Source: Marsupella aquatica (lineage: Eukaryota > Plantae > Marchantiophyta). Taken from it: a stretch of DNA of 64,000 nt. The position numbers and the translations under genes were made by a program. Positions 3,254 to 48,704 of this stretch are shown in pieces; position 1 is the stretch's first letter; every line of letters begins with the position of its first letter. The notes under the pieces were generated by a model. That model was not told the DNA's origin. It worked only from the letters and a program-made list of their open reading frames with translations, and ran no database searches. Location: the NCBI GenBank assembly GCA_973895155.1, contig OZ316895.1:9164184-9228183 (forward strand). Reading direction: 5' to 3'.

Positions 3254-5246
3254 ATATAGTTTCTTTTTAGGGTGCTTGGCTTCACCAACATCCCGTTATG
3301 TTCAAGTTTGCCTAGCCAAGAAAAATGTGCACGCATATCGGGCTGGCATAATTTTCAATTCACAGCCGGCTCTACTTCACCAACATCCCGCGTTATTGAA
3401 GTTTGTCAGGCCAAGATAAATGTGTAACATACCCAATTCAAGATGGCCATGTAGTAACCATGCTGACCTAAGGGTTTCCTTTAAAGTTGTCCCTAACCTT
3501 GAGCCCAAATTTAACCTGACTTGTTTAGGGCCTAATATAGTATTTTGGTATTTTGGCAATCCTACAAACCCCTTACATGTGCTGAACGGTGCAAACTCAA
3601 TGGCTCATCTCAACGGATCGTGGCAGGGTGATGAGTAAACGTGACTACTCCCACTAAGTGTTGGTTTAGTGAGTGTTGTCATGAGTGAAGAGCATCGAAT
3701 GCATGTCAAATGTTGAGGTTTTGCAAGGCTTTGTAGTGTTCCAAGGGTTTTACAGTCGCAAGGGCTCTTTTCTTCCAGTGTTCACGCCCATTGTGTTTTG
3801 CCAAAACACGTCATGCTGCAAGCTACGATTGGGGTTGCAATGAAAGGTTATTTCTAAGGACATTTAACTAGGAGCTAGGGCGAAGAAGGTTGCAGTCGCT
3901 GCAACCTTAGGTGGGGAGGACCTGTGATTGTGGGTAGATCTATGACTGACATTGCCATCTGCTGCGTATCAAGCATCGCCATCACCATTTTGCTTATTTG
4001 AATAGGACTAAGTGCGGTAGAGCAAGACGGGGAGCTAGAGAGTTGCAGAGAAGCCAAGTGCCAAACACTCCGCTCACAAAAATACACTTGTCCTCACTTG
4101 TTGTCAACTCTCGCACTCGGGTTTAGGGATTTGGCGCTTTTGGAGGTGGGCTTTGGCGCTTCTCGGAGGAACCTCGCGCTTCTCGGAGATGTGGAGGAGT
4201 GAGGCTGCTATGCGCAAACATCTTTTTCTTTCAAGTGGTGCTACGGTTGCTTGGTGACGAAAGGCTATGGGATGTGTGTTGTAGCTGCTATGACCAGTGA
4301 CCTCTAGTTGGGAAGGACTTGCGAGAGCTACGGTTGGGGAGGACCTGCGGTTGGAGCTATAGTCGGCTGGAGGTGGTCGCAAGCTGGTAACAATCAGAGG
4401 GGTTAGTTTTCTACATCTTAAACCTATCGGGATTTTGTGCTTGTGGCCATGCTATCCTTTCTGCCAGTTCATGAGTTTGCTATGGAGACTTTGTATCAAT
4501 GTTCTTCTGAGGAGGCGTTGAGTTCTCTACTAGGGTTTGTCAAATTTGTTTACAGGTCCATGTATTTGCGCCATACAACTTAGACTTGTGTAAGCAACTC
4601 AAATCAGTTGCTTTAGGCCTGTAGGATTGGGGCCTGGATTTTGCAAGAGCTGCAACATTGCAGGATTCAGGTCCATATTGCAACGCACAGACGGTTGCAA
4701 GTTGATCCTCCACATTCACAAAATTCCATGTTTCAACATTGCCCTTGCTTCATCACTGATTTGTCCTTTGTGACGGGTACCCCGTCACGGGAAGTCACAC
4801 ATAACTGGTTGCAAAGGCCGATACCTTGTTAATAGTCAATGTAAATAAGCCATTTTTTAATTTTTAGTTAATTCCGTCATTATAGGTTGATGATGCCCCA
4901 GGTGACTTTATATTCTTTCTCTCATAATAGTTCTAAGATTTGCGGCGACCTAAGTGGGCAAATATTTTGGGACCTTGAAACTAGCCAGGACCAGCCCCAT
5001 AGGACTTACCGTTTTGCTTCAAGAGCTATTGTTGAGACCCCCATTGCAAAGTCAGGAGAGGGGGGGGTTTTTTTTTAAATAAATCCCTCCTCAGGAGGGC
5101 GAGTCCCATTAGTGGCCGTCCGAGAGAAAGAGGGGCTGCCTCGCGAGCCCATAGGGCTGCGTGCCCGGGCGATTAATGGGGCTCCGCGAGCTGAAGGGGC
5201 TGCCTCGCGAGCCCATAGGGCTGCGTGCCCGGGCAATTAATGAGGT

Positions 5247-5450
5247 CCCGCGAGCTGGGAGGATCACGCGAGCGGGGGGGAGTTAAAGGGCCTCCCGCGA
5301 GCTGGGAGGATCACGCGAGCGGGGGGGAGTTAAAGGGCCTCCCGCGAGCTGGGAGGATCACGCGAGCGGGGGGGAGTTAAAGGGCCTCCCGCGAGCTGGG
5401 AGGATCACGCGAGCGGGGGGGAGTTGAAGGGCCTCCCGCGAGCCGGGAGG
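5247..5450 (+). repeat. GC-rich 47-bp tandem repeat in the 5' LTR (4 full units + partial), preceded by a 64-bp-period duplication at ~5131-5245
   Basis: Unit CCCGCGAGCTGGGAGGATCACGCGAGCGGGGGGGAGTTAAAGGGCCT starts at 5247, 5294, 5341 and 5388. Confidence 0.93.
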
Positions 5451-5874
5451 AATGGCCGCGCGCCCTGCATAGGGCCGCGCGCAGGAGGACGCAAGGGTAA
5501 GGCCCGAGAAATGGGCCGGGGCGCATGGCGAAGGCGCCAGGAGTTTTTTCGGTTCTATTTTTTTTTCCTTCCTTTTTCTTTCCCTCTTCCTTTTGCACGA
5601 CCCTCTCATTGCCGAAAGCAAAAACGGGGTTCTTCTCTCTCTTGCCGGAAGCTCTCTCCAGATTCTAATTATTTTTGAAGCTCTCTCTTTCATGGTGGAT
5701 TAGTGGGGCTTGCTGGCGTCATTCTTCCAGGCATTAGTGGCGGCCGCACGGAGTAGTGACGGGAAATTGAGAGAATTTAAGTGATCGGGCTACGGGGGCT
5801 GTTTCGGGCCAGGGAATTGACATTGCCACGGGTGACGGGATTGGTGATTGAGAAATTGATTTCGGGATGCATGG

Positions 5875-7731
5875 ATGCTAGATCAACCAGAGTTTAGTGC
5901 GTCACGCATTCGGAGATACAAGGCTACTTACCGTGACTACGTGGAGACTCGGATTACACGGGAAAGGGAAGAGAGAGAAGTTATGATGAGCACGGGATTG
6001 GCAGCGGGTTCCTCACCGGTGGGTAGGAAGATTTTTCGTCAAATTTATCCCAAGACCTCCACCAAGGTGATGGAGGATTGTCGGAACATTTTCCAAGCCA
6101 CCGGGCTTACAGAATTCATGAAGGTGGAGATTACCATCCCTTCAGGGAAGAGCTGGGACATTGAGGCCGGGATGGAGTTCCGAACGGAGGGAATCTACTT
6201 TGAATGTCTCAAACGTGTAGTGCCCCATGTGGAGTTGGCTAAGCTATTGTTTCTTGAGAATCAGAAATTCTCATTCACACCTCAGAATATCAGGGGAGAA
6301 CTCACGTTGAAAATGGTGGCCACTTGGGTGACCAATCCTACCTCCACCACCGCCATCCCTCTTTCTGCTGTCAAGGATGTTGAGTATAAGGGCTTCCTGG
6401 CCAAGGTGCATCAACGGGTTCTTGGCAACGTGCAATCCGGAGTGCTGAATGAGGAGCATTTCGTGGTAGCTATGGACATCAAGAACTACCCAGCCCATGT
6501 GTACGGATGGTGGTGCTACGGATTGAAGAAGCTATTGGCCGCTGAGCCCAGGAGTGTGAAACCAGGTGGGGCTGTACATTTGATGGGGTCATTTGTATTG
6601 GCCAGGGCAGAAGGGTTGATTGGTTCTCCGGGGCATGAAGACACGGGATCATCTCTCACCACGGAGATCCGGAGTATTGCCACTACCGTTTTAGGGAAGC
6701 TCACGGAGGAATCATTGTCTGCTGGTGGGGAGGATAATAGAGAAGAAGAGAACCAGGAGGATGATTGCACATTGGAGTGGCTTGAATCACTCGTGGGAGA
6801 TCCGAAACAGCCTCTGGAATACAACATTCCGGATGTTTACTTGGCAGAGCTACGGGATTTCAGAGAGGGAGTCCACGAGGGACTCAAGCTAGTCCACGCA
6901 TTGAGGGAGTCTCTCAAGCACGCCACAGTCAAAGTAGAGACGTTAGAGCAGAGCATCCTGTCACTGAAGGAGGTGATCAAGACCAAGGAGCAGACCATTC
7001 ATGAGAAGGTCAGGCACATCAATGCAGCTCACGTAGAGATCACCAACTTGAAGGGAGCTTTGTCCACCAAGGCCAAGGAAGCAGAAGAAGTAGGAGCGTT
7101 GAGGCAAGCATTGGCCAAAGAGAAGCAAAATTCTGGAGAAGTGATGGAGTGGAGGAACCAGGTGGGAGCACTACGGAGTCAGGTGGCAGCCTTTGAGACA
7201 CGAGCGAAGAGAAGTGAGGCCCTGAGTCTAGGGAAACGGAAGAGTCCCGGCACACCTGGCTCCACACTTTCCCCGGATGTGATCTCCCAAGCTATCGAGA
7301 TGGTGGTGAAGGAGGTTAGTGGGAAGTATGGACCCTTGTTGGATGGAGCCAAGAAGAGTCAGGAGAAGAGTAAGAGCTTGGAGAAGAAGCTCCGGGAGGT
7401 ACGGAAATCGTTACGGGAGGCTCAGGTCAGTACGGGGATGCCACCCAGGTCTGTCACCCCCGGGACTCCCATGGCCACGGGGCAAGTTCTACCGTTGGAG
7501 TTGCGGTCCGGAGAAGAGGCTACCCTCTGGAAGGACACAATTGGTGAGGGGTACATCAAGGCGTGGCAGGCCTTGGCTGCTTTGAGGAAGCGCGGGAGCA
7601 GCAGCACTAAGAGTACTCCGTCGAAGAAGAAGAAAAGTACGGTGGCACTCACTCCCGTGAGTGATGAGGAGGAGGACCACTCACGGGGCACAAGTCCGGG
7701 CACCGAGAGCGAAGAAGAAGAGGAGGATTAG
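5875..7731 (+). CDS. LTR-embedded 618-aa accessory ORF (5' LTR copy): globular N-terminus, long coiled coil, basic NLS-like and acidic tail
   Basis: Uninterrupted ATG-to-TAG ORF wholly inside the LTR; heptad-rich segment ~aa 320-520; PSKKKK and EEEEED at the C-terminus; no transmembrane stretch evident. Confidence 0.8.
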   Translation: MLDQPEFSASRIRRYKATYRDYVETRITREREEREVMMSTGLAAGSSPVGRKIFRQIYPKTSTKVMEDCRNIFQATGLTEFMKVEITIPSGKSWDIEAGMEFRTEGIYFECLKRVVPHVELAKLLFLENQKFSFTPQNIRGELTLKMVATWVTNPTSTTAIPLSAVKDVEYKGFLAKVHQRVLGNVQSGVLNEEHFVVAMDIKNYPAHVYGWWCYGLKKLLAAEPRSVKPGGAVHLMGSFVLARAEGLIGSPGHEDTGSSLTTEIRSIATTVLGKLTEESLSAGGEDNREEENQEDDCTLEWLESLVGDPKQPLEYNIPDVYLAELRDFREGVHEGLKLVHALRESLKHATVKVETLEQSILSLKEVIKTKEQTIHEKVRHINAAHVEITNLKGALSTKAKEAEEVGALRQALAKEKQNSGEVMEWRNQVGALRSQVAAFETRAKRSEALSLGKRKSPGTPGSTLSPDVISQAIEMVVKEVSGKYGPLLDGAKKSQEKSKSLEKKLREVRKSLREAQVSTGMPPRSVTPGTPMATGQVLPLELRSGEEATLWKDTIGEGYIKAWQALAALRKRGSSSTKSTPSKKKKSTVALTPVSDEEEDHSRGTSPGTESEEEEED

Positions 7732-8862
7732 ATAGGCGTACGGACGTGGGTGTACGGCCTCCAGATTTCCAACATTTTAGTGGGGGGTCACTCATGGGCT
7801 TGTTGGGATGAGCTCGCGGAGCTGATTCCAACAAGAGGCGGCGCTCCTCAAACGGAGCCAGGATGAGCAAGTTATGGCCTGGAGAACTTATGTTTTTGCG
7901 GTACGGAAACGGCCATAACTCAGGCGTCTGAAGTCCGTTGAGGGAGCGACTTAGTGATTCGGAAGCAGGAAAAGAAGAGCTATCCAGGGGTGAGCTCAGG
8001 TGTGCACTTGGAAGGGCACCTAGTTTCGGCCATTTTGGGGTGCCTCTCACTTTCAGGGTTCACGTGTACTGTTGGGGCGCCGTCGAAGGCACCGTCGGCC
8101 CCCTTGTTTTGGGTTTAGGGTTTTAGCAGCATGTGTGTGCCGCATGCTCCTCTTCAGTTTAAGGATTTCTCTTAGTGCAAGGTTTTAGCGGCGCCGCTAG
8201 GGTAGCCGCCACCGTTGTGACCCTGTGAGGGGTGCTTTGGTGTGATTTTTCAGTATTTAGGGGGATAGCCCCGAAGTAGTTAGGGGGACTCAGTGTGAAG
8301 TTAGCAAGGAGGGATAGAGTGGAGCCTGAGGAGTTTGAAAGCGTGTTCAGAGTAGTGAGGGGGAGCCATACTCATTGTCCGGAGAGGCAGGAGTTGAGTA
8401 GATGGCAGGAGGCCGGGTTACTCATGCAATGTGTATCGTTTTTCCCAAGAGATATGGATCTGTACATTTGACTTGATGGGCTTTTGTTGTGTGTTCCTTC
8501 TCCCTTTTTCGCTTTCCGAATTGTGTTCTCCCGTTCTATGATTTGAAGAAACTTGCTTGGTTTGAGTCGGCCTTGTGAGTAGGGGTGGTGACAGCACTCT
8601 TTGGGTGACTCCGAGTGAAGGTGTAGTGGGGTAGTCGGCAGGACTTGATCAAAAGCTGTGGGGTGAGGGTAGTCGGTAGACTTGATCAAAACCTACATTT
8701 CCGGGAGCGGAAACCAAAATACTCATCCTGGTGTGAAAAGAATCCAAATAGCGTCCCTCCACGACCCCGTAATACGATACCAACGGTTTAAGCGAAGAAA
8801 AGTGCGGTTTGCACGTATTAACCGTTGGAGAGGCAAGTGACATAAGTGTGGTCTTTTGTTTT

Positions 8863-8880
8863 TGGCGCCGCTGCCGGGGA
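8863..8880 (+). promoter_or_regulatory. Primer-binding site complementary to tRNA-Asp 3' end (Athila-type)
   Basis: TGGCGCCGCTGCCGGGGA, one mismatch to TGGCGCCGTTGCCGGGGA; starts 20 nt after the LTR end. Confidence 0.8.
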
Positions 8881-9097
8881 ATCCTTCTTCTTGTTTGACG
8901 ACACGAAGGAGGGGAGCTACGTCTATTGGGAGTTCAAACCTATCAACCACAATGCAACTTGCGACGGTTGATACGTGAGAAGTTTGTTGGTTACTTTGTT
9001 ATTGTACGTCAACCACAACGCATCGTGCGACGGTTGATGTTTACAAATATTGCTTTCTGAGACATTGGTGTAAGTTTGGAATGCAGGTCTCAATGGG

Positions 9098-12000
9098 ATG
9101 CCGAGAGGGAGAAGGGGAGGTAGAGGAAGTCCCCAACACACACGTACCCCAAGATCAGAGCTAGAAGGGGGGCCCTCTTGGATTGGGACCAGACGACGAG
9201 TTGCTGCCGAAGAACGCTTACGGCTTGCAGAAGAGAGGAGGTTGCCACTGGTGCTGGAAGAACAAGTTGGTGTGCAACAGGAAGAGGCTCAACGTAATGA
9301 GGCCATATGCCCAGACGAAGAGCCAGACATAGATCACGAGCGAGAAGAAGGAGAGCCCTTTGTGTTGGTGCAGTCTGAGTTACAAAATCTGATCCCAGAG
9401 CTCACTGCATTGCCACAAATCATCTCACACCTATCATCGGTGCTGTTACCGGTGGCCCAACAAGCGCCATTACCACCTGTGTTGATACAGGCACCGGCTG
9501 CACCGATGGCAGCTGCACAACGTACCCGTGTTCAGTACGTACCCTTCAAGGGGAGACCAAAGGATGATCCAGACGAATGGATTGAGGAGTTTGAAGGGAT
9601 TGCCGAAGCTAATGGGGAGTCTGCACATAAGCTCACTATCATTCCTGGAATGATGAGAGGGGAGGCAGGTCCATGGTTCATTTCGTTGTTGGCCAACGTG
9701 AAAGCTGATTGGGCTCTGTTCAAGCAAGCCTTCTTGAAGGAGTTCAGATCCATAGGAGTGGAGGCCACCTCACTATTAAAGGTGGGCCAACTCAGGATGA
9801 AGAAGAAGGAGTCATTACGGAGGTTTTTGCAAAGGTTCCAAAAGCTGGTACGTCGGATCCAAGCCCGTACCGATGATGCTATGCGTCAAGCCTGGTTTGT
9901 GGCTGCCCTACCAAGCAAGATGGGGTTCTTTGTACGTCAAGCCAAGCCAACCACATTGGCTGAAGCTATTGCAGCAGCGGAGTCATACACCGCAGCTGAT
10001 GCCACAAGCAAGCGTTGCCGAAGAAAGAAGCTGAAGCCGGTTGACAGTTCCTCCAGTGAGGAGTCGAGTGGATCTGATTCAGATAGTAGTGATGAATCTG
10101 AGGATTCTGAGAGTACTACAGAGTCAGACACTACGGAGTCAGAAGCTGAAAGACGAAGGAGGAAGAAGAAGAAGTTGTCAAAGAAAGTCAAGAAGTCCTC
10201 TCACCGTGAAGTGATACTACCCACGGTGGCCGTTACACCATTGTCTACGGCAAGACGCCTGAAGGAGCAAGAGGCCAGATATGATGAGCTGACGGAGCAA
10301 ATGAAAGCGTTGAAAGTACATTTTGCCGGACTCAAACCTGAGAGGAGAAAAGTTCCGGTGGAGAGAGCCAATGTGTGGTGCACCAAGTGCATGAAGTTTG
10401 GTCATGCCCCGAAGGAGTGCCCAGCGGGAGAACCAGCCAAGGTTTTCCAAGTACGGGAGGAGGATGTTGAGGGGGCAAGCTACTCAAATCCTTCATATGC
10501 AGCGGAAGGGCCAATAGAGTACTTCATGGAGGAGCCACCAGAGGCCAACGTGTATAGTGTACAACCTCTCAACCCGGGACCACGGAGCATTCATGGAGTT
10601 TCAACAAACGCCGGAGCACCCGCATACTCCAACTATCCCAACGCTAACCCAGGGAATCGACCACCGTACCCTGGAGTGAGGAAGATCCCTATTTGTTACA
10701 ATTGTAGAGTGGCGGGCCACTACGCTAATGTGTGCCCAGAGCCCACCCGTCAAGGCAATGGAGATTTTGCCCGGCTGTGTCAACTATGCAAGGGGGAGGG
10801 TCATCTTGCACCACACTGCCCAACCTTGGAGGCGTTCAAGGCTCAACCGATTGGGGCACAAGAGAAGAAGGGGCCGCCACCTCCTCTGAAAGAAGCTAGC
10901 GTCAACTTTCTCACCACGGAAGCAGTCGACACCCCTCTAATCACTAGAAGAGAAGAAACCGTAGTGAACATTCCCAAGCAAAGGATGACCACCATAACGG
11001 AGGAGGTGGTACCGCTAGTCGTTGTAGTATCTCCAGTTGTTGAGATACCGGTGGTTGTTGTTGCAACATCTACGGAAGTTGAAGTTGCTAACCCCTCACC
11101 CCCAAGTCATGAGTGGACTCATGCTGAGAATCTACCGGAGGAAGACAGCGACGAGGAGAGAAGGCATTACTCTTGTTACCGAGTCTCCACTCGATCCGGC
11201 AAAAAGAAGGGCAAGTCCGAGCTCAAGCAGAAGTACAAGGAGGTGCATCAAGCTTCCACATCGGGTACCTCACACGAACCGGAGGTGCCACCCATGGAGG
11301 ATAGTGACTTTGATCGGGACAACCCCAAGTTGTTCTATCCGAAGGTGGGAGAAGAGGTACGTAAGCAGTTGGAGGAGCTAGAAGCACAAGCCATGCAAGC
11401 GGCCATTGACAAAGACATGGAGGAGGCAAAGGCCAGAAAGAAAGCGGAGGAGAGGGTTGTTCGTTGGAAACCGGGAGAAGAGGTCATCCCACCCATACCT
11501 CCTGCAACCGCGTACAACATTGCTCAAGACATTCTGGATTGCCCAGTCAGTGCCACAATTGGTCAACTATTACGGGATAGCTCCCTATACCGTCGCCAAG
11601 TCAAGGAGATTCTCATGAGGAGGAGACGTAGAAGAAGGTTACCCAAAGTTGGGGCTGACCCCATACAAGTCAACTGGGTCACGGAGGATTTGGGTGCCCC
11701 AGAACTCACGGTGGACATCAATGGATGTGCAATACGGTTTGTACCGGTGGACGGGGGCTCGGGAGTCAACATCATGACTGAGGAGACGGCAAACCGGTTG
11801 GGGTATACAGAGTTAGAACCACCGGCACGTGCCATGAGGTTGGCTGATGGTGCACGGGTGGTGCCGTTGGGGTGTCTCACCAAGATTCCAACAATGATTG
11901 GGGGAAAATCTTTCCCCCTCAACTATTTGGTGATGCGACCCGTTCGGCCGTACGGTTTTCCCATTTTAATTGGCAGGCCATGGTTGTATGTGGCCAAGGT

Positions 12001-15000
12001 CACAAGTGATTGGGGCAAACGGCAGTTTCGGTTTGGTATCCCCACTATCACTATTCCATGGTCAGCGGAGTCACCTCACGGGGAGACTACGACTATGGAG
12101 GAGGAATATGATTCAGAGGTCACCTCAGATGAAGACGAGGATGAAGTATACATGGTGAAACTGATTTCTCACCTCACGGAGGAAGATGTTTTTGGCCCCG
12201 GAGTTGCTACTCAAGAGCATGCAGTAGAGGAATCAGTTAGCCAAGTGCACGCTGTTCTAGAAGAGATGGAAGACGAGCGAAGCAAAATTGTGGAGGCTGA
12301 ACCTCTAGAGATTCATGATAGGGAGGCAGAGGATCACCCCGAGGAGGTGGAAATGCAAGCCCACACGATCATGTTTGATGATGAGCAAAGAGAGCAGTTT
12401 TTGAATGACATCCTGGATGATGACTTTAGAGAGGAGCTATTGTCACATTACAAAGAATCTGACGTTGAAGAAATAATGGCCCATGTGACAAAGGATCCAC
12501 CTCCATCCCGACCAGACCAGGAGGAGAGTGATGCACCGGTGTATGGAGGGATGAGGCTCGCACGGTTGGAAGAAACCTTTGATGAGGAGACACGCAACAA
12601 GTTGGACGTGATCAGGCCGGAGCAGTACACAAAGGTGGAAGTGGGTGAGGGCAAGACACTCAACATTGGTAGTAAGTTGGATGCTACGGAGCAACGCACG
12701 ATTCAGGAATTGTTGAAAGAGTACCAAGACGTATTTGCGTGGAGCCACCAAGATTTGAAAGGAGTGCCACCTGAGTTTGGTGAGCACAGCATTGACCTGA
12801 TGTCAGGAGCACGACCTGTGAGGCAACGCCAATACCGCCTCAACCCCAAATACTCACTCATGGTGAAGGAGGAGATTGACCGTTTGTTGGATGCAGGATT
12901 CATTTATCCGGTCATGCATAGTGAGTGGGTGTCACCCATCGTAATCGTGCCCAAGAAAAAGGGGCCAGACGGGAAGGTGAAAATACGGGTGTGCCAAGAT
13001 TTTCGAAAGTTGAATGATGCGACCAAGAAGGATCACTACCCGCTACCGTTCACGGATATCGTGTTGGACATGGTAGCAGGTTGGGAGATATAGAGCTTCT
13101 TGGATGGCTACTCTGGGTACAACCAAATCTGGATACGGGAGGAGGACCAACTCAAGACGGCTTTCACAACAGAGTGGGGGATTTTTGCATTCCGGAGAAT
13201 GCCTTTTGGGTTGTGCAATGCCCCTGGCATGTTCCAACGGCTCATGATGAATATATTTCATGACTTTTTACGCAGGTTCTTGGAGATCTTTATTGATGAC
13301 TTTGCTGTCTACGGCAAACGAGTCAAGCATCCGGAACACTTACGGTTGACTTTTCAGCGGTGCCGGGAGACTTGCCTGAAGCTGCATCCGGAGAAATGTT
13401 TCTTTGGAATTGAGGAGGGAATCCTATTGGGCCACAAAGTGTCTGCACGAGGGATTGAAGTTGATCGTGAGAAGGTCGCCGTGTGGGTAGCAGTCTCATT
13501 TCCCAAGAATGTGAAGGAAGTGAGAGGGTTCTTGGGGTGTGTTGGCTACTACCGACGCTTCATCAAAGACTTTGCCAAGGTAGCCATGCCACTCACTTCC
13601 ATGTTGAAAAAAGGAAGTGAGTTTGAACCTACTCCTTCCCGTCAGGCTGCTTTTGATGAATTGAAGAAACGATTGCTAGAGGCCCCCGTGCTCATTACGC
13701 CCAATTGGAATAAGGAATTCCATGTTTACGTAGACGTATCAGGATTTTGCATCGGTGCCGTTTTGAGTCAGTTAGATGATGATGGAAGAGACCATCCCAT
13801 CTACTTTGCCAGTAGGCAGTTGGCCCCGGCAGAGAAAAACTACTCACCCACCGATAGGGAGGCACTTGGTATCATCTACGCTTGTAAGAAGTATCGTCAT
13901 TATTTGTTGGGGTACAAGGTTGTGTTCCACACGGATCACAACAGCTTGAAATACATGGTCAACAAGCCAGATCTGTCCGGGAGAATTGCACGTTGGGTTT
14001 TGTTGCTACAAGAGTTCAACTATGAGGTGAGAGTAAGATCGGGGAAGAGTCATAGCAATGCAGACTTCTTCTCCCGTATTGAGGGAGCATCTGACTCCCA
14101 GGAGATTGATGATCGGTTCCCGGATGAGGAAGTGTTCAGCGTGAATACAGAGGCCACTACTTGGTATGGAGAAATTTTGGAATTTCTCCGCACGGCTAGA
14201 GTTCCCTCACGTTTGGGCCCGGAGAGAGCAGCAGTGTTTTTGCGTAAGACAGGTCCCTACTTGCTGGTGAAGGGAGTACTTCACAAGTACGGCATGGATG
14301 GCCGACTTCGTCGTTGTTTGGAGGAAGCGGAGATACGTACAGTCATGGCAGCATTACATGAGGAGGAAGCTGGTGGCCACTTTGCACGGGAGACCACCGC
14401 AAGGAAAATACTAGATGCTGGATATTGGTGGCCAACTCTCTTTCGGGATGTACACCGGTACATCCAGCGATGTGATCCGTGCCAGCGTCAAGGCAAACCA
14501 GGGCCCTCCTCACGACACCCATTGGTGCCCATACTTCCTCTTGCACCCTTTGAGAAGTGGGGGGTGGACTTCATTGGCCCTTTCACTCCCATCACACGAA
14601 GAGGGAGGAAGCGCTACATCATTCTTGCAACGGACTATGCCACCAAGTGGGTGGAGGCCCGAGCTACTGCCAAGGATGATGCCAACACCACGGCACGTTT
14701 TTTGTATGAGCAGATTTTTACACGATTTGGTCCACCATTGGAGTTGGTAAGTGACAGGGGTACTCACTTCCTCAATCATACGATTGAACGTTTGACGGAG
14801 AACTACTTGATCTCACATAGGAAGACCACTCCGTACCACCCTCGAGCCAACGGGCTCACTGAGAGAGCCAACGGGATCATGGGCAAGATCCTCAACAAAA
14901 CGGTATCCGCTCACAAGACCGATTGGGATTTGAAGTTGTTGGCTGCCACTTACGCTTACAACCTGGCTCACAAGACTACCACGGGCCACAGCCCCTATTT

Positions 15001-15496
15001 CCTTGTGTTTGGACAACACTCTCTTGTGCCGGTGGAATTTGAGGTTCCAACCATTCGAATCCTAACACGGGAAAGGGAAGGGGCAGAAGAAAGTGTCGCT
15101 TCACGGATCCAACAGTTGGAGCAACTCACGGAGACACGAGAAGAGGCTTTGACACATACGGAGCAGGAGCAAGGCAAACGCAAGTCACATTACGATTCCC
15201 GTCTCCGTCGTGTGTCCATTGAGGAGGGAGATTTGGTGCTCCTCTACGATAGCCGCTTCATGCATTTCCCCGGGAAGTTGCATACACGGTGGATGGGACC
15301 CTACGTAGTGGATGCCGTCTACTCCAACGGCTCGGTTCAACTCAAGACATTGGAGGGGCAACTACTCAACACACGGATCAATCAAGAGCGCCTAAAGAAG
15401 TACTACACGGAGGAAGAGTATGGTGCTCGCGGGGGCGCTTCGCAATTAAGAGAGGAGCTATGTGACGGGTACCCCGTCACGGGAAGTCACACATAA
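9098..15496 (+). pseudogene. gag-pol polyprotein (Gag, 3 CCHC zinc knuckles, protease, RT, RNase H, integrase) with one in-frame TAG at 13091-13093
   Basis: ORFs 9098-13093 and 13100-15496 share a frame: VAGWEI*SFLDGYSGYNQ. Knuckles CTKCMKFGHAPKEC, CYNCRVAGHYANVC, CQLCKGEGHLAPHC; PR VPVDGGSG; RT FIDDF; INT HEEEAGGH..CDPC, GVDFIGP, VSDRG, ERAN, WMGPY. Confidence 0.93.
15448..15457 (+). other. Polypurine tract
   Basis: AAGAGAGGAG 3 nt upstream of the 3' LTR, inside the end of the pol reading frame. Confidence 0.8.
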
Positions 15497-15938
15497 CTGG
15501 TTGCAAAGGCCGATACCTTGTTAATAGTCAATGTAAATAAGCCATTTTTTAATTTTTAGTTAATTCCGTCATTATAGGTTGATGATGCCCCAGGTGACTT
15601 TATATTCTTTCTCTCATAATAGTTCTAAGATTTGCGGCGACCTAAGTGGGCAAATATTTTGGGACCTTGAAACTAGCCAGGACCAGCCCCATAGGACTTA
15701 CCGTTTTGCTTCAAGAGCTATTGTTGAGACCCCCATTGCAAAGTCAGGAGAGGGGGGGGTTTTTTTTTAAATAAATCCCTCCTCAGGAGGGCGAGTCCCA
15801 TTAGTGGCCGTCCGAGAGAAAGAGGGGCTGCCTCGCGAGCCCATAGGGCTGCGTGCCCGGGCGATTAATGGGGCTCCGCGAGCTGAAGGGGCTGCCTCGC
15901 GAGCCCATAGGGCTGCGTGCCCGGGCAATTAATGAGGT

Positions 15939-16189
15939 CCCGCGAGCTGGGAGGATCACGCGAGCGGGGGGGAGTTAAAGGGCCTCCCGCGAGCTGGGAG
16001 GATCACGCGAGCGGGGGGGAGTTAAAGGGCCTCCCGCGAGCTGGGAGGATCACGCGAGCGGGGGGGAGTTAAAGGGCCTCCCGCGAGCTGGGAGGATCAC
16101 GCGAGCGGGGGGGAGTTAAAGGGCCTCCCGCGAGCTGGGAGGATCACGCGAGCGGGGGGGAGTTGAAGGGCCTCCCGCGAGCCGGGAGG
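15939..16189 (+). repeat. 47-bp tandem repeat in the 3' LTR (5 full units + partial)
   Basis: Same unit as 5247-5450; the LTR offset shifts from 10692 to 10739 across the array. Confidence 0.92.
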
Positions 16190-16613
16190 AATGGCCGCGC
16201 GCCCTGCATAGGGCCGCGCGCAGGAGGACGCAAGGGTAAGGCCCGAGAAATGGGCCGGGGCGCATGGCGAAGGCGCCAGGAGTTTTTTCGGTTCTATTTT
16301 TTTTTCCTTCCTTTTTCTTTCCCTCTTCCTTTTGCACGACCCTCTCATTGCCGAAAGCAAAAACGGGGTTCTTCTCTCTCTTGCCGGAAGCTCTCTCCAG
16401 ATTCTAATTATTTTTGAAGCTCTCTCTTTCATGGTGGATTAGTGGGGCTTGCTGGCGTCATTCTTCCAGGCATTAGTGGCGGCCGCACGGAGTAGTGACG
16501 GGAAATTGAGAGAATTTAAGTGATCGGGCTACGGGGGCTGTTTCGGGCCAGGGAATTGACATTGCCACGGGTGACGGGATTGGTGATTGAGAAATTGATT
16601 TCGGGATGCATGG

Positions 16614-18470
16614 ATGCTAGATCAACCAGAGTTTAGTGCGTCACGCATTCGGAGATACAAGGCTACTTACCGTGACTACGTGGAGACTCGGATTACACGG
16701 GAAAGGGAAGAGAGAGAAGTTATGATGAGCACGGGATTGGCAGCGGGTTCCTCACCGGTGGGTAGGAAGATTTTTCGTCGAATTTATCCCAAGACCTCCA
16801 CCAAGGTGATGGAGGATTGTCGGAACATTTTCCAAGCCACCGGGCTTACAGAATTCATGAAGGTGGAGATTACCATCCCTTCAGGGAAGAGCTGGGACAT
16901 TGAGGCCGGGATGGAGTTCCGAACGGAGGGAATCTACTTTGAATGTCTCAAACGTGTAGTGCCCCATGTGGAGTTGGCTAAGCTATTGTTTCTTGAGAAT
17001 CAGAAATTCTCATTCACACCTCGGAATATCAGGGGAGAACTCACGTTGAAAATGGTGGCCACTTGGGTGACCAATCCTACCTCCACCACCGCCATCCCTC
17101 TTTCTGCTGTCAAGGATGTTGAGTATAAGGGCTTCCTGGCCAAGGTGCATCAACGGGTTCTTGGCAACGTGCAATCCGGAGTGCTGAATGAGGAGCATTT
17201 CGTGGTAGCTATGGACATCAAGAACTACCCAGCCCATGTGTACGGATGGTGGTGCTACGGATTGAAGAAGCTATTGGCCGCTGAGCCCGGGAGTGTGAAA
17301 CCAGGTGGGGCTGTACATTTGATGGGGTCATTTGTATTGGCCAGGGCAGAAGGGTTGATTGGTTCTCCGGGGCATGAAGACACGGGATCATCTCTCACCA
17401 CGGAGATCCGGAGTATTGCCACTACCGTTTTAGGGAAGCTCACGGAGGAATCATTGTCTGCTGGTGGGGAGGATAATAGAGAAGAAGAGAACCAGGAGGA
17501 TGATTGCACATTGGAGTGGCTTGAATCACTCGTGGGAGATCCGAAACAGCCTCTGGAATACAACATTCCGGATGTTTACTTGGCAGAGCTACGGGATTTC
17601 AGAGAGGGAGTCCACGAGGGACTCAAGCTAGTCCACGCATTGAGGGAGTCTCTCAAGCACGCCACAGTCAAAGTAGAGACGTTAGAGCAGAGCATCCTGT
17701 CACTGAAGGAGGTGATCAAGACCAAGGAGCAGACCATTCATGAGAAGGTCAGGCACATCAATGCAGCTCACGTAGAGATCACCAACTTGAAGGGAGCTTT
17801 GTCCACCAAGGCCAAGGAAGCAGAAGAAGTAGGAGCGTTGAGGCAAGCATTGGCCAAAGAGAAGCAAAATTCTGGAGAAGTGATGGAGTGGAGGAACCAG
17901 GTGGGAGCACTACGGAGTCAGGTGGCAGCCTTTGAGACACGAGCGAAGAGAAGTGAGGCCCTGAGTCTAGGGAAACGGAAGAGTCCCGGCACACCTGGCT
18001 CCACACTTTCCCCGGATGTGATCTCCCAAGCTATCGAGATGGTGGTGAAGGAGGTTAGTGGGAAGTATGGACCCTTGTTGGATGGAGCCAAGAAGAGTCA
18101 GGAGAAGAGTAAGAGCTTGGAGAAGAAGCTCCGGGAGGTACGGAAATCGTTACGGGAGGCTCAGGTCAGTACGGGGATGCCACCCAGGTCTGTCACCCCC
18201 GGGACTCCCATGGCCACGGGGCAAGTTCTACCGTTGGAGTTGCGGTCCGGAGAAGAGGCTACCCTCTGGAAGGACACAATTGGTGAGGGGTACATCAAGG
18301 CGTGGCAGGCCTTGGCTGCTTTGAGGAAGCGCGGGAGCAGCAGCACTAAGAGTACTCCGTCGAAGAAGAAGAAAAGTACGGTGGCACTCACTCCCGTGAG
18401 TGATGAGGAGGAGGACCACTCACGGGGCACAAGTCCGGGCACCGAGAGCGAAGAAGAAGAGGAGGATTAG
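16614..18470 (+). CDS. LTR-embedded 618-aa accessory ORF (3' LTR copy)
   Basis: Identical to 5875-7731 except Q/R, Q/R and R/G changes. Confidence 0.8.
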   Translation: MLDQPEFSASRIRRYKATYRDYVETRITREREEREVMMSTGLAAGSSPVGRKIFRRIYPKTSTKVMEDCRNIFQATGLTEFMKVEITIPSGKSWDIEAGMEFRTEGIYFECLKRVVPHVELAKLLFLENQKFSFTPRNIRGELTLKMVATWVTNPTSTTAIPLSAVKDVEYKGFLAKVHQRVLGNVQSGVLNEEHFVVAMDIKNYPAHVYGWWCYGLKKLLAAEPGSVKPGGAVHLMGSFVLARAEGLIGSPGHEDTGSSLTTEIRSIATTVLGKLTEESLSAGGEDNREEENQEDDCTLEWLESLVGDPKQPLEYNIPDVYLAELRDFREGVHEGLKLVHALRESLKHATVKVETLEQSILSLKEVIKTKEQTIHEKVRHINAAHVEITNLKGALSTKAKEAEEVGALRQALAKEKQNSGEVMEWRNQVGALRSQVAAFETRAKRSEALSLGKRKSPGTPGSTLSPDVISQAIEMVVKEVSGKYGPLLDGAKKSQEKSKSLEKKLREVRKSLREAQVSTGMPPRSVTPGTPMATGQVLPLELRSGEEATLWKDTIGEGYIKAWQALAALRKRGSSSTKSTPSKKKKSTVALTPVSDEEEDHSRGTSPGTESEEEEED

Positions 18471-21400
18471 ATAGGCGTACGGACGTGGGTGTACGGCCTC
18501 CAGATTTCCAACATTTTAGTGGGGGGTCACTCATGGGCTTGTTGGGATGAGCTCGCGGAGCTGATTCCAACAAGAGGCGGCGCTCCTCAAACGGAGCCAG
18601 GATGAGCAAGTTATGGCCTGGAGAACTTATGTTTTTGCGGTACGGAAACGGCCATAACTCAGGCGTCTGAAGTCCGTTGAGGGAGCGACTTAGTGATTCG
18701 GAAGCAGGAAAAGAAGAGCTATCCAGGGGTGAGCTCAGGTGTGCACTTGGAAGGGCACCTAGTTTCGGCCATTTTGGGGTGCCTCTCACTTTCAGGGTTC
18801 ACGTGTACTGTTGGGGCGCCGTCGAAGGCACCGTCGGCCCCCTTGTTTTGGGTTTAGGGTTTTAGCAGCATGTGTGTGCCGCATGCTCCTCTTCAGTTTA
18901 AGGATTTCTCTTAGTGCAAGGTTTTAGCGGCGCCGCTAGGGTAGCCGCCACCGTTGTGACCCTGTGAGGGGTGCTTTGGTGTGATTTTTCAGTATTTAGG
19001 GGGATAGCCCCGAAGTAGTTAGGGGGACTCAGTGTGAAGTTAGCAAGGAGGGATAGAGTGGAGCCTGAGGAGTTTGAAAGCGTGTTCAGAGTAGTGAGGG
19101 GGAGCCATACTCATTGTCCGGAGAGGCAGGAGTTGAGTAGACGGCAGGAGGCCGGGTTACTCATGCAATGTGTATCGTTTTTCCCAAGAGATATGGATCT
19201 GTACATTTGACTTGATGGGCTTTTGTTGTGTGTTCCTTCTCCCTTTTTCGCTTTCCGAATTGTGTTCTCCCGTTCTATGATTTGAAGAAACTTGCTTGGT
19301 TTGAGTCGGCCTTGTGAGTAGGGGTGGTGACAGCACTCTTTGGGTGACTCCGAGTGAAGGTGTAGTGGGGTAGTCGGCAGGACTTGATCAAAAGCTGTGG
19401 GGTGAGGGTAGTCGGTAGACTTGATCAAAACCTACATTTCCGGGAGCGGAAACCAAAATACTCATCCTGGTGTGAAAAGAATCCAAATAGCGTCCCTCCA
19501 CGACCCCGTAATACGATACCAACGGTTTAAGCGAAGAAAAGTGTGGTTTGCACGTATTAACCGTTGGAGAGGCAAGTGACATCCTTGCCCATAAAAGTAC
19601 TTACATTCTCTGAGTTGCAGTTGGATAGGTGCTGCAACAATTGCGGTCAAGGAGGACATGTTTGCTTGTTTGTTCTTTCAAGTTTTGGTGGTTGTGGTGT
19701 TGAGCTTCTCAGGAGGGCAAGCAACTAGCCTTTTTAGGAGCTTTGAAACAGGTATGTGATCTCCAATGCCAAGGTTGCGTGGGGTATGCTTAGTTCATAC
19801 CCAATTCTTTTTCTTAAATCATTTGAGTGTGTTCGTACTTGCATGCGGTCAGAGGTTGTTTGCATGGCACTGTGAAAAATCTGCGCACAACTGCTGCTTG
19901 TCTATACTTCCCTTTTGCTGCATCAGTGCCCGCATTGCTCAACTCTGATCCCTGCTATGTTTGTTCCTCCAGTCCCTTTCTTTTAAGTTGCTCTTCGCAT
20001 TGCTGCTTCATGTGGCCACACAGCTCAGCAGTTTGTATTTGTTGTTTCTTGTCCATGTATAATTTCACATTCCTTGACATGTCTGTATTTCTGCCAGGCC
20101 CTTTTAGATTTGGAGAGGAGACAGGCAAGGTTACCATTATTCATTGTGCCTTTTTCCTCAACTGCTGAGTTGTTTGCTTTGCTATTCTTGCCAATATGTT
20201 GTTGTCAGTAATTGTAACTTCTAAGTTTGTTAATTGGTATTTGGTATTTCATTTCATTGGTAGTACTTTGTTTCTCTGTTTGTGTTGCATTGAATGATCC
20301 TGTTGATTGTTGTGTGTTCCATCATAGTTCCTGCTTTTAGATATTCATTTGTAGAACAGTTTCTGATAACACAATTTAGAGCCTTTGCTAAAATATTGTG
20401 GATAAATATGATTGTTTCCCTTAATTTTCCCTCAAAGTATGTTGCTAAGATTGACTAGCACATCCCATTACTTAGCCATCTATAAGCTCCTTACATTCTT
20501 TGTCTTTTGAGCAATGTTGTGTTGCCTGAGCTGTTGTGTTTGCTGAGCAGCTCAAAGAGTTGGGGTCAAGGAGGAGCTAAAGACAAGGACCAGTTGCCAT
20601 TGGGGATGACATGTGTCCCACATAGGATTGTAGCTTAGTCAACTACAGCCGGTTGGTCAAATCTTAAACCAAAACCATGTTTTGTGCTGCCAACTACCAC
20701 ACAAGAATCTGGTGCCATGCAATGTCACACTGAGTCTTTAGGTACTATTCAATCCTAAAGGGCTTCCAACAGGGCCAGGTCTGTGTTTTGACTTAATGTT
20801 GATTTTGAATGTGGCCTTCCGTCTGATGTTTTGCCTACACATCGTCCAAGTCTGTCAGTGTGTTGGTTGATTTTTATTGGTTGGACTGGCAATTTGCCCT
20901 TTCTTTTAGTTTAGTTTTGGGATGACGTTCTCATCCGTGCATCAATTTCTTCTTTGTGTTGTGAACTCTATGACGGATTGCTGTTGCTCACCCCTCCTCC
21001 ACATGTATGGAAATGACACCCATAGTTCATTGTGCCCTATGTTGAAGGTTATCTGAAGTAGGTTTTCATGAATGGAGTGAATGGTTCAATGAATGCATGA
21101 ACAGTGGAGGCATTGAAGACAGGTGTTTCTTGTAAGTAGAAGGGCAAGAAGGTTCCTGAGATTGGTAACCTGCTATGATTTAGTAGTTTACATTTGAAAA
21201 GTGCATGAGTTTTGTCAAGCTTAAGTTGTGAAAGGTAATCTTTTTTGTAAAAACTGGTTGGATGAACAAAATCAGAAGTGACATCATGATTGATGTATTA
21301 GGTGATTCAAAGACAAATAGTAAGAAAGATGTGCCCAGTGCCTCAATGTCCATAGCCAAGGAGGTATTAGGTAAGCTTATGCTTTAAATTCCTCTATATG

Positions 21401-21953: not shown

Positions 21954-24691
21954 GGAGCATATAATTTAGCATAAGTTTTCTCAATTTAAGGTTTGTTTAT
22001 ACTTTCACTATGAGGTTTCTACTTAGTTTCACTAGATCTTAACTTTTGCAAGCTAGAACAAATATTTCAAATTTAGAATCTAACTTAATTACTTTCTTGA
22101 CTTTTCAATAAAACAGAGTTCTTCACACAACTATATATTGTTAACCATTCTCATTGCTTTTATTTTAATGACTCAAAATCATGCAAACTCCATTTTTATT
22201 CAATTCCCATTTATCACAATCAAATAATCTTTTTCAACTCTAAGAAGAACAAATTATTCAAAAGTATTTCATTTCAAGCATTTATTTTATCTTTAAACCA
22301 TTATGTTTTAAATACTCTTTATATATGTAAAACCTCGTTGGGTCTTGGGATTACAACAATTCACTAAGTATCTCTTCTGTTGGCCCTTCATCAATTGGGT
22401 CTCAAACTCGGTCCAGGTCAGGTCGTCAAGTTTTCTTGTTCAGTTCTGGTTTGATCCATTATTGTCCCTTTAATCTCCTCCCTTCTCCCCTAAGATTTTC
22501 TCTACAAAAACTTCTTACATCTCACCACTCCTTTACAAAAAAAGGTCTCAATAATTGGGTTCCACTCATCAAAATTAACCAATTATGATTCTGGCACACT
22601 TCCCTATTTGGGTTCCTAAAAACCAAGGTGAATCAGGAAACAAAAATCCACATTTCTTATTGTAAGCTCTTAATCATCTCCATGGTTGCAACCAATTCTA
22701 ATCATCTATGGTCTCCCCAAGACACTTCATACACAACCTCATCCTTTGCTGTGTCTCTTTCTCTTGTTCTCTTGTTCTATTCTTCTTTTCTCTTCTCTAG
22801 CTTCCTCCTCTGGTCCATTTCATGTCTTCAATTCTAAGTCCAAGTTAAAAAAAAAAGAACTTCCTTTTTATCATAGAATGATGGATAGAATGAATGACCA
22901 AGTAGTTGGGAGTTCCGCTGGTAGTTATATATATAGGTAAACGTGATGTATTATAGTCCTGGTTAGGATAATCTAACTAGGGACAAGTTCTAGACATAGG
23001 GGTTATAACACTCCCCCTTGGCTATATAGTGAAAGCTATGTAGGCAACTAACTCTATATGTCTAGTTTTGATACATCATGTTTATAAGAGATATATGACA
23101 TATGTACAAGTGAGGAGGACTACCTCGTTAAAACCTTTAACAACTCTTTTATAAAAAAAAACTCTATCAAGGTAGTAGAGAACAAAAATCTGGTTCCAGG
23201 AAAAAGTAGTACCGCCTATCAGGAAAACATAACCTATTTGAGATTTAGCAGTGTTGGTATCTGAAAAATAACTAGCATCCGTATATCCTACTAGTTCATG
23301 AGGTTCGTTAAATGGAAAGAATAATTTGGTGTCAATGTGACCATAGAGATAGCGAAAAACAAGCTTAAGTCCATTCCAATGTCTGGAAGTGGGTTTAGCG
23401 CTATGTCTTGCAAGTAGGTTAATAGCAAAAGAGATATCTGGTCTAGTCTAATTTGCTAAGTAAATTAGTGCACCTATATAGTGGAAAGGTATGGGGTTTC
23501 ATGTTCTAAAGCCAGTTCATCCGTATTTCCAAAAAATGTTGGTATCGTTCTATATTGAGCGTACTACCATTGGAGATGTAAGGGGATGAGCAAGCTGCAT
23601 GTTAAATTGCTTTAGGATTTTCTCAGTATATGTGGTTTGGTGCAATAAAATGTCAGTAGACAATATCTATCTTGAGTTGTAGACCAATACAAAATTTAGT
23701 GGTTCCAAGGTCTTTCATCTCAAATATAGTTTTGAGTGTTGCTATGGTGTCCTTGGTAATTATTGGAGTACCAAAAATGTTTAATCATCAATGTAAATGG
23801 CGACAATGATGAATTTGTCATCAACATGTTTAATGAATAAGCATGGTGCCAATGCATCATGGGAGAAGCCCATGGCTACCATTTCATCAATGAATTGTTG
23901 ATACCATACTCTACTACTTTGTTTTAGACCATATATGGCCTTCAACATGCGGATAGCTAGTCTGCGGCGAGTATGTCATACGGTAGACATAGTGGTGTCG
24001 TTAGGTGTATGTGTAGATGACACATTAGAATGAGATGAATCTGAGATAAGTTTGTGTAAATATGGTATATGGAGTTTTTCTCCTTGAGCTAAAGCACTGC
24101 GTCGTGCTTCTAATTATGGTGGAATGCGCATGTAGATGCACATATCAAGTGTCCCATAGAGGTATGATATGGCGACATCCATTTGCCTCATTTTCAGCTT
24201 GTGAAAAATGGCAAAGCAAATTAAGTAACAAAAAGTAATGCCGTCCATTACTGGTGAGTAAGTCTCATTGTAGTGGATGCCAAGTTGTTGTGTAAACCCT
24301 TTCCCTACTAAACGAGCCTTGTATCGGACTACTTGGCCTTTGTCATTTTGTTTCCGAACAAAGGTCCATTTGTATACTATTGGTTTTCTATCTGGTGGAG
24401 TTAACTCTGGCACTTGGCCAAAGGTATTGCGGCTAATAAGAGAGTCGAGTTTTGCATTAATAGCAGTTTGCCACTTGGCCCAATCATGCCTATTTTGGCA
24501 TTAAAGAATGGAAATTGGCTCTGGAGTATCGTTGGTAACATTAGTAGCTACCATTAACGCAAAACATTCATCCGGTAGGATGATTTGTTGATTCCACATT
24601 TCGTCTATGTGGTTATACTGTATGGAGATTTCCTCATTAGTATTGCTAAGAGGATCTGTAGTTGGAGTAGGTGAAGATAACTAGCATCTAC

Positions 24692-47800: not shown

Positions 47801-48704
47801 TTTCACAGTAGTGACATACTATACCACCCTCTTCAATGAGCGAACCCACCACATGCTGGCCACTAAGCTTAGGGGTACCAGCCCACGCTTTAGAATTGCA
47901 TCTCTTCTTTCGCAAAAAATATTCACAAGACTTGTTCCTGCACTCGACGAACCCAGTACAACTGACTTTACCAAACTCCCAGTGTTTTTTTGGTTGCACG
48001 TTTGCGGTCGTCGGAAAAATCCTGGTCCAAATGTAACAATCTTTGGCACGGTCCATGTCACGAAGTCTAGATCCTTTGGACTGCATTCCCACAATGGGAG
48101 GCAATTCAAATACAATATTTCCGTTGTACTTGTTTGGCAAACAAGGAACTTGATCGTGTCGAAAGTCCCCTACCGAGATAAATCTTGACAATTCACTATG
48201 GCCTGTGGCCTTGAGTAAGGCGTCCATTGCACTCCGCCGGTAAACCTTCTGGACATCTCCAGAAGTGGCCACCGGTTCACTCTTAAGGCAACTAGAGCTT
48301 GGAGCTTTGTGCTTCTCAGGAGGATTGGGCGCAACTTCCTCATCTTCACTCTCAGATATTTCAACAACCTGGGGCGGAATGTCCTGAACAACCGATTGAA
48401 GAGGGGTAGGTCTGACATGAAGCGTGTAACAAAGTCCTACATTCATGTGCCAGAAACATATTCCGTCATCCACATCAAATGCCGCAGCTGGTTCATGTCC
48501 TCCACCCGATGACTCCTCAGGAACAATCGACAGAATGTCATTGATTCTCGAATCGAATCTCCCGCACAGATAGTTCTCGCTTACTTGCCTGTAAGTATCA
48601 AAAACCTGCACGGGAACTTTGACGACTTCCCGGGTACAAGCACGTGTAATAACAATTGAGCGCGACATTGTAGATGAAAGAAGTTTAGGCGAGAAGTAAT
48701 TCAT
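44885..48704 (-). pseudogene. MULE-type DDE transposase with GCM/WRKY-like zinc domain and C-terminal SWIM finger; 2 exons, one nonsense codon
   Basis: Exons 48704-46683 and 46405-44885 (GTAAGT...TTGCAG intron, phase 0); TGA at 45980-45982 (likely from CGA). Motifs KVSCTGFVEC..CHYC..C..HIGEHNHP; VSFDVMKR; FMADNAQSGWIAVRNVF; SDAFH; GSESRHASMK; CSCEDF..PCKH. Confidence 0.85.

Follow-up and report, generated by a model that had tools for sequence, protein, structure and literature searches.

The sag gene of mouse mammary tumour virus (MMTV), nef of human immunodeficiency virus (HIV) and bet of foamy viruses are coding sequences located in U3, the unique 3' region of the long terminal repeat (LTR), and are copied to both LTRs; nef and bet overlap U3 only in part. 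Plant LTRs are treated as non-coding, and the extra open reading frames (ORFs) common in plant Gypsy elements mostly lie between pol and the 3' LTR, reviews placing them internally (PMC7264820, PMC6317226). The element considered here, of the Ty3/Gypsy type, carries an intact gene of 618 amino acids (aa) wholly inside each of its LTRs. It was found in a stretch of 64,000 nucleotides (nt) from the liverwort Marsupella aquatica (assembly GCA_973895155.1, contig OZ316895.1, positions 9,164,184 to 9,228,183, forward strand), hereafter called the window. Literature searches aimed at LTR-resident ORFs, judged from titles and the openings of abstracts, returned no plant case; subscription papers and supplements may contain some.

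Athila elements display target site duplications (TSDs) of 5 bp in 95 % of cases and a gag-stop-pol form in 12 % (REXdb, PMC6317226). Gaps between the LTR and the primer binding site (PBS) measure 5 nt in Diaspora (PMC1142308) and ~10 nt in FIDEL (PMC2844528), while long LTRs are reported for Diaspora (2.5 kb), Ogre (more than 5 kb; PMC1142308) and the chromovirus Retrosat2 (more than 3.2 kb; PMC3485330). The 3' ORF of sunflower Athila is Transposase_32-like with a predicted nuclear localisation signal (NLS) (PMC11728184). The Athila domain and VANC were modelled as coiled-coil pentamers, VANC being structurally homologous to MAIN (PMC13547354), and PMD and VANC were structurally linked (PMC13547354; 10.1101/2024.09.27.615353). 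Athila and Phygy were both already reported from a liverwort genome (PMC12885004).

The element and the gene inside its LTRs

The Athila-like element occupied window positions 4769-19581 on the plus strand. The first-pass annotation had fixed its LTR boundaries by TSD, PBS and polypurine tract (PPT), and this was confirmed by TCCTT on both sides and by matching repeat edges. Likewise upheld were an ORF of 1857 bp lying wholly inside both LTRs and open in both, and a pol frame that reads through the PPT and stops 36 nt inside the 3' LTR, at 15494-15496. The ORF is supported as a conserved accessory gene doubled with each insertion. It is proposed, with a probability of about 0.55, that an Athila-type 3' accessory gene was taken into U3 as the PPT/LTR junction moved from behind the gene to the end of pol. 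The features are as follows.

4764-4768, plus strand: left TSD, TCCTT, read from the element flanks
4769-8842, plus strand: 5' LTR of 4074 nt, TGTGAC...GTGACA, from the LTR comparison
4769-5874, plus strand: LTR segment 5' of the ORF and putative promoter for it, containing a pyrimidine-rich tract and tandem repeats of high GC content (64-nt x2, 47-nt x4.4)
5875-7731, plus strand: accessory ORF of 618 aa, 5' LTR copy, wholly inside the LTR and open
6025-6624, plus strand: conserved N-terminal domain (N-domain), residues ~51-250, a weak lead to ATHILA-ORF1/Transposase_32
6892-7209, plus strand: predicted coiled coil, residues ~340-445
7600-7728, plus strand: basic (KKKK) patch and acidic tail, a nuclear signal predicted from composition
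7732-8842, plus strand: LTR segment 3' of the ORF; its 1111 nt come close to the length of the entire LTR of related locus L002
8863-8880, plus strand: PBS of tRNA-Asp type, matching the FIDEL PBS in 17 of 18 letters (PMC2844528), the assignment being judged against FIDEL
9098-15496, plus strand: gag-PR-RT-RH-INT in a single frame, from the ORF list and Pfam domains
15425-15460, plus strand: PPT with conserved upstream box, within the pol coding sequence, like the downstream box of L002 and the boxes of related loci L004-L008
15461-19581, plus strand: 3' LTR of 4121 nt, TGTGAC...GTGACA, from the LTR comparison
16614-18470, plus strand: accessory ORF of 618 aa, 3' LTR copy, wholly inside the LTR and open
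19582-19586, plus strand: right TSD, TCCTT, read from the element flanks

The longest stop-free frame of the LTR measured 623 codons; in 1000 base-shuffled versions of the LTR it averaged 154 and did not exceed 304. In the 5' LTR the ORF is preceded by 1106 nt and followed by 1111 nt of LTR. A full scan of 1.84 billion representative proteins returned 13 matches (names were looked up for ten), nine being fragments at 42-62 % identity and four Calypogeia fissa proteins at 27-32 %. A profile search added two C. fissa homologues, and motifs of the window protein were shared by the homologues of this species down to 22-32 % identity. A word-index search with the single protein gave no match among 7995 candidates, and of 36 pattern matches obtained with the ORF in a metagenome scan, none was confirmed.

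The two LTRs differed by five substitutions (0.12 %) and one 47-nt indel, equal to one unit of the tandem array, so the insertion is very young. All five substitutions were CpG transitions. Three fell within the ORF, each altering an amino acid in the 5' LTR copy, and at these positions contigs from sequencing runs agreed with the 3' LTR letter. The differences are post-insertion decay and uninformative on selection; a reading of the three amino-acid changes as relaxed selection was rejected, these being CpG decay in the 5' LTR. As a side observation, a short inverted repeat, GTGACGGG..CCCCGTCAC, opens the LTR at its att end (4770-4788).

Along the protein, the N-domain (~51-250) gives way to an acidic linker; a second motif (~298-345), the coiled coil, a conserved block and the basic/acidic tail come next. 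The coiled coil announced earlier was retained as a prediction: coiled-coil Pfam matches were all sub-threshold (residues ~310-490), and a helix at 320-364 was the best-supported C-terminal part of the predicted structure. AlphaFold models were of low confidence (pLDDT 42 and 49); Foldseek found no match in the PDB at E<=0.001, which is uninformative given such a model, and PDB sequence searches with profiles of the window ORF and of its relatives' ORFs gave no match at E<=10. In the earlier description as an accessory nuclear protein, the first adjective is borne out by conserved homologues, while nuclear location is predicted only, from the KKKK patch and acidic tail. The protein is physically not env-like, as had been stated, since no transmembrane segment was detected (best 19-residue Kyte-Doolittle mean 1.09); the gene, for its part, most likely corresponds in position to the 3' sense ORF of Athila, which is often labelled env-like.

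Ten sequencing runs of eight studies, none recorded as RNA (which carries no information on expression), contained the window stretch or part of it, and six of these (four studies) contained 70-92 % of its words. Contigs of four runs (X1, X2, X3 and X7) were compared over window positions 5650-15740, the first ~880 nt of the LTR being uncovered. Ratios of LTR to internal depth were taken from near-identical top contigs, diverged X1 record 8 and X3 record 23 being left out; contig depth is not copy number, and the values of 2.24 in X1 (2 versus 5 contigs) and 2.22 in X3 (4 versus 3) are a hint only. A ratio near 2 fits two ORF copies per element, an internal ORF giving 1, and together with the conserved homologues it agrees with the earlier claim that the gene is duplicated at each insertion. 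At 2.2 against 2.0 it also suggests that solo LTRs are scarce among near-identical copies, and none was observed directly; the idea that the placement serves survival in solo LTRs therefore gained little support. Among the 12 of 85 indels listed, one fell in the ORF and kept the frame. The ORF very probably resides in the LTR throughout the family. As an observation apart, window positions 7672-9019 displayed in X3 about twice the depth of the ORF part, with many indels at 8657-8666, possibly reflecting a related family that shares the LTR end without the ORF.

These data also bear on whether the arrangement could stem from a duplication made in assembly or from two elements in tandem, or whether the ORF could be a passenger of this one copy. 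No second full-length copy was seen, as such an artefact would have it, but the TSD, PBS and PPT are perfect at the repeat edges, the LTRs differ just by CpG decay and one repeat unit, the words recur in six runs of four studies, homologues are conserved and sister-clade loci display a like layout. This explanation is extremely improbable and already largely refuted.

An in-frame TAG within RT (13091-13093), absent from the first-pass annotation, makes the window copy defective in cis. It is not fixed in the family, as most depth carried a different letter in three of the four runs (885 of 997 in X1, 18.7 of 18.7 in X2 and 3575 of 6441 in X3); in X7 this applied to 3 of 1880, the depth there being mostly unrelated RT. 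The stop belongs to the window copy or to one sub-lineage. Read-through between gag and pol at this stop was rejected, since it lies inside RT, its context is not C-led and most other copies differ.

Related loci and classification

Nearest named pol proteins were those of liverworts: identities reached 70-74 % for Calypogeia (partial), 45-58 % for Riccia and 46 % for Marchantia, angiosperm elements being mostly at 42-50 %. Scanning viral contigs with pol gave 24 matches, none confirmed. Of 299 loci confirmed in a metagenome scan with a pol alignment, 80 were kept; eight of these (L001-L008) matched the window pol over its full length at 55-60 % identity.

A maximum-likelihood tree (27 pol sequences, 768 columns, LG+G4) took in ten of the 80 loci and 23 of 120 pol matches, seven of 34 rows being dropped as within-clade near-duplicates; REXdb references were absent from it, as were Tat, Phygy and Selgy sequences. 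The window grouped with Calypogeia and P0040 at 100/100, in a clade whose named members are liverwort proteins and which is separated by a long branch from angiosperm Athila-like pol. This clade was joined to L004-L008 at SH-aLRT 93.2 and UFBoot 91, the latter being moderate support, and L001-L003 fell outside (FastTree support for the grouping 0.96).

Members of one ORF family were found 3' of pol on the sense strand in seven of the eight loci, the L001 contig ending 325 nt past pol. These ORFs measured ~605-740 aa, with mutual identities of 27-48 % for the five long ones. Two layouts were recognised, pieced together from contigs because none of the loci is a whole element. In L004-L008 the LTR likely begins right after pol and the conserved ORF follows 500-770 nt further in. 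L004 and L005 display a PPT box at most ~90 nt from the pol stop, followed by TGTGGGAGC; as this inversely matches the LTR end before the PBS, the LTR starts directly after pol, with the ORF start ~510-660 nt from that edge. The same box occurs in L006, L007 and L008 (37-42 of 42 letters). L007 extends 3568 nt beyond the box, through an ORF of 630 aa and a further 1.1 kb in which no second box occurs.

L002, a circular contig, displays the other layout: pol, a PPT-like box without a direct TG, the ORF (4222-6447), a second box and TGTGAT at 6574. Its LTR is ~1 kb long and its PBS lies at 7576, the ORF thus being internal between two PPT-like boxes. L003 groups with L002 on a contig too short to show the layout. 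The first-pass annotation had held that relatives with short LTRs and an internal ORF would speak against its view. One distant relative, L002, has this structure; the layout of the window family stands, and L002 points to the origin of the LTR-resident layout and not against it in that family.

The window PBS is identical in L002, L004 and L005. The gap that precedes it measures 20 nt in the window (8843-8862) and 5-11 nt in these three loci; with 20 nt, the cDNA end would bear a long overhang needing removal at integration.

The relatives' ORFs share 37-57 % amino-acid identity with near-saturated synonymous sites (pS 0.66-0.83), and dN/dS was 0.26-0.34 in three of the six pairs where it was computable. 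They evolve ~4x faster than pol (dN 0.38-0.60 versus 0.09-0.13); since local alignment favours conserved parts, dN/dS and rate ratios are rough.

The ORF profiles were the only scan applied to L009, a 1-kb piece, and to L010-L080, mostly below 45 % identity; in L011, L012, L020, L034 and L036 the pol ends were inspected as well. In L011, an Athila-like element at 41 % pol identity, a long ORF (8073-9770) lies just after a PPT-like run at 7722. In-frame polyprotein stops were observed in L002 (814-822, TAG CAA TCA) and, as TGA then C after gag, in L004 (1910-1915) and L005 (3142-3147); that of L002 fits the CARYYA read-through context. L002 also contains a dispersed AGCGCT-rich repeat with a period of 8 nt, in gag-PR (621-700), the accessory ORF (5052-5131) and the LTR (6732-6803), a candidate target motif for a sequence-specific factor.

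The window element displays the 5-bp TSD and tRNA-Asp PBS of Athila, and its pol matched the Pfam domains RT, RH, INT-H2C2 and rve only, with neither aRH nor chromodomain. Its extra ORF is not internal between pol and PPT, the position seen in L002. The element was not filed as a standard Athila because of this ORF position and because the tree does not place it firmly within Athila; the LTR gene behaves as an Athila 3' accessory gene would. Membership in Phygy (4-bp NCGN TSD, tRNA-Trp PBS, 7.7-10 kb, no extra ORF) and Selgy (4-bp TSD, tRNA-Ala PBS, 4.4-6.7 kb, no extra ORF) was rejected (PMC6317226). Within the Athila-like elements, a branch found in bryophytes likely has this LTR layout in common.

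Origin, expression and possible role of the LTR gene

In the conventional layout, that of L002 and published Athila, the accessory gene follows pol and precedes the PPT. Relocation of plus-strand priming and of the att end to the box behind pol would turn everything downstream into U3, to be copied to both LTRs. Recombination between the two PPT boxes, and not a mere change of use, would be needed, because the window box resembles the downstream box of L002 more than the upstream one. The ~1.1 kb after the ORF would then be the old U3-R-U5 (R, repeat region; U5, unique 5' region), still starting and ending the genomic RNA; this post-ORF kilobase is roughly as long as the complete L002 LTR, which fits a junction shift. 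A relic PPT box after the window ORF was considered and rejected, the best match (20 of 42 letters) being background. An origin from an internal 3' gene by such a shift is considered probable.

Several observations weigh against this proposal. The direction of the move rests on one informative outgroup, L002, and on published Athila structure; none of the related loci is complete, with both LTRs and a TSD; the join to L004-L008 has the moderate support given above; and the similarity of the window box to the downstream L002 box, greater than to the upstream one, runs counter to a simple shift. By tblastn and hmmsearch the window protein was linked neither to the relatives' family nor to Athila ORF examples. 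By hhalign, pairings of the window family with the L002-L008 family, and of either with two Athila/Transposase_32-type examples, all stayed below 1 % probability, with scores no better than those of shuffled columns, and the ORF protein had no Pfam match above cut-off. The dN/dS values cover the relatives' ORFs, none being from the window's own family, for which the 40 variants listed out of 1665 are too few. No clear TATA box was seen close upstream of the window ORF. Besides the limits of contig depth, the LTR to internal ratio was only 1.3 in X2 (2 versus 6 contigs), X7 was too thin, and in X3 the post-ORF LTR bins (19-33 thousand) were ~2x the ORF bins (11-15 thousand), so that some relatives may share the 3' part of the LTR without the ORF.

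The negative comparisons would be expected if the window gene were unrelated to the relatives' gene, having been captured independently, or having replaced it, in the same slot of long LTRs prone to cargo. The extra ORFs of REXdb form hundreds of unrelated groups (PMC6317226), which would suit such a capture. It nevertheless appears unlikely: position, strand and size (618 versus ~605-740 aa) are alike, as is the domain layout (N-domain, acidic linker, coiled coil, low-complexity tail), and loss of sequence signal is expected of a gene evolving ~4x faster than pol, the ORF profiles being moreover shallow (Neff 2-3). In addition, the ESM Atlas points to one clan for both proteins. Scores of the window N-domain (0.79 to an unnamed plant cluster, 0.78 to ATHILA ORF1 and 0.76 to Transposase_32) all stayed below the 0.9 line of the Atlas and are a lead only, which also counts against the proposal; the L007 N-domain scored 0.90 to Transposase_32, with 23 of 30 matches in the Transposase_32 set. 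The unnamed cluster (279 aa, 72 members) was listed for both. With slot, strand, size, layout and Atlas neighbourhood all shared, a common origin of the two proteins is likely. Homology of the window protein to the relatives' protein or to ATHILA-ORF1/Transposase_32 is a lead only, and the profile comparison with the latter, suggested by the first-pass annotation, ended at shuffle level.

Within the LTR, the ORF probably belongs to U3 rather than R. TATA-like boxes and pyrimidine tracts occur 180-310 nt 5' of the relatives' ORFs; as these, and the tandem repeats and pyrimidine tract of the window, precede the ORF, the gene would have its own promoter. Each LTR, including any solo LTR, would then be a complete transcription unit, with two gene copies per insertion. 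The post-ORF segment of the window displays a TATA-like word (TATTTA, 8254), two TGTA words (8432, 8461) and a run rich in T (~8450-8570), with a candidate poly(A) region at ~8430-8570.

The main rival on ORF position is an R region of ~3 kb with one promoter 5' of the ORF, giving a short ORF mRNA that stops at the poly(A) site behind the gene, a genomic RNA by read-through and, with the ORF spliced out, a gag-pol mRNA. It draws on the clear TATA and pyrimidine tract before the ORF in L004, L005, L006 and L008, on poly(A)-like signals, judged by eye, that lie a short way past the ORF in L007 and 1.3 kb or more ahead of the LTR end in L005, on a conserved pyrimidine tract with a terminal CAG, ~95 nt ahead of the LTR end in both L004 and L005, and on TGCAG/GT at 9082-9088 before the window gag ATG (by eye; it failed the pyrimidine filter). 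This model requires, however, that transcription pass a 5' poly(A) site lying kilobases from where it began, and the post-ORF part both equals a whole conventional LTR in size (~1 kb in L002) and contains the TATA-like word at 8254; L005, not L004, has TATAAAA ~120 nt before the LTR end. An R-region position is therefore regarded as rather unlikely, and U3 is preferred.

As to function, the protein is predicted to be nuclear and oligomeric, and it may bind element DNA or chromatin and oppose host silencing, as in reports on VANC and PMD. This proposal draws on the family leads, the NLS of sunflower Athila, the coiled-coil pentamer models and the homology of VANC and MAIN. An anti-silencing or trans-activating job is put forward tentatively. 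Coiled-coil accessory proteins of LTR elements also act in RNA export (Cer1 CERV, PMC10309623), and DNA binding by the window protein is a prediction only; with shared origin kept, the protein could instead serve element RNA (export, packaging) or tether integration. The sole family leads speak against such a role, as they point to the ATHILA-ORF1/Transposase_32 group, which we take to be akin to PMD. Improbable as it is by itself, RNA export or integration tethering is about as likely as anti-silencing.

Surroundings and comparison with known systems

Elsewhere in the window, remains of a CACTA-type transposase (DUF4218, DUF4216) lie at 733-2522, 2 kb upstream of the element. GC-rich plus-strand ORF pieces at 26752-28609, between 86-nt repeats at 22926-23011 and 32505-32590, adjoin apparent minus-strand Copia remains; by eye they resemble the accessory family of L002-L008, and they matched neither Pfam nor the hidden Markov model of that family. 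A cluster of ORFs of 200-700 aa on both strands occupies 44885-53438. Four of them were scanned, with no Pfam match at E<=0.01, and their Cys/His-rich parts suggest a DNA transposon.

The paired layouts, internal in L002, likely in the LTR in L004-L008 and in the LTR in the window, show how kilobases, and with them a gene, can be added to an LTR. The role of the Athila accessory ORF becomes testable; here it is intact, belongs to a young family and forms a compact unit that can be studied apart from gag-pol. Such LTRs would be taken for host genes by annotation pipelines, or their ends would be overlooked.

Like Athila (PMC6317226), the window element displays a 5-bp TSD, a tRNA-Asp PBS offset from the LTR, no aRH or chromodomain, a single gag-pol frame, a size within range and a large sense-strand extra ORF downstream of pol. 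It differs in that this ORF lies behind the PPT within the LTR, and hence twice, in that pol overlaps PPT and LTR, in a pol only ~42-50 % identical to angiosperm elements, in a PBS gap of 20 nt and in an ORF without Pfam match, the Athila 3' sense ORF belonging to PF03078/PF20167. With Phygy of mosses and Selgy of lycophytes it shares the character of a non-chromovirus of non-seed plants whose polyprotein fills nearly all of the internal region (PMC6317226). Retrosat2/FRetro3 with ORF0 and Ogre with ORF1 also combine LTRs above 3 kb with a fast-evolving sense extra ORF (PMC3485330, PMC1142308); theirs lies upstream of gag-pol, between LTR and gag in Ogre, and occurs once per element.

The likeness to sag, nef and bet, genes of animal retroviruses, is one of layout; no sequence relation was found, none having been looked for. 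VANC and PMD are likewise accessory proteins linked to transposable elements, with a globular domain and a coiled coil (PMC13547354; 10.1101/2024.09.27.615353); no match of the window protein to either, or to the PMD/DUF1985 fold, emerged from sequence searches or from fold searches on low-confidence models, and VANC stems from DNA transposons. A bolder view, considered unlikely, is that a whole bryophyte Athila-like branch has, through relocation of the PPT/att junction, a U3 gene that makes every LTR, even a solo one, a cassette for a sequence-specific anti-silencer licensing the family in trans. If true, this would amount to a VANC among retrotransposons, sitting next to the repeats that it targets and arranged like sag of MMTV.

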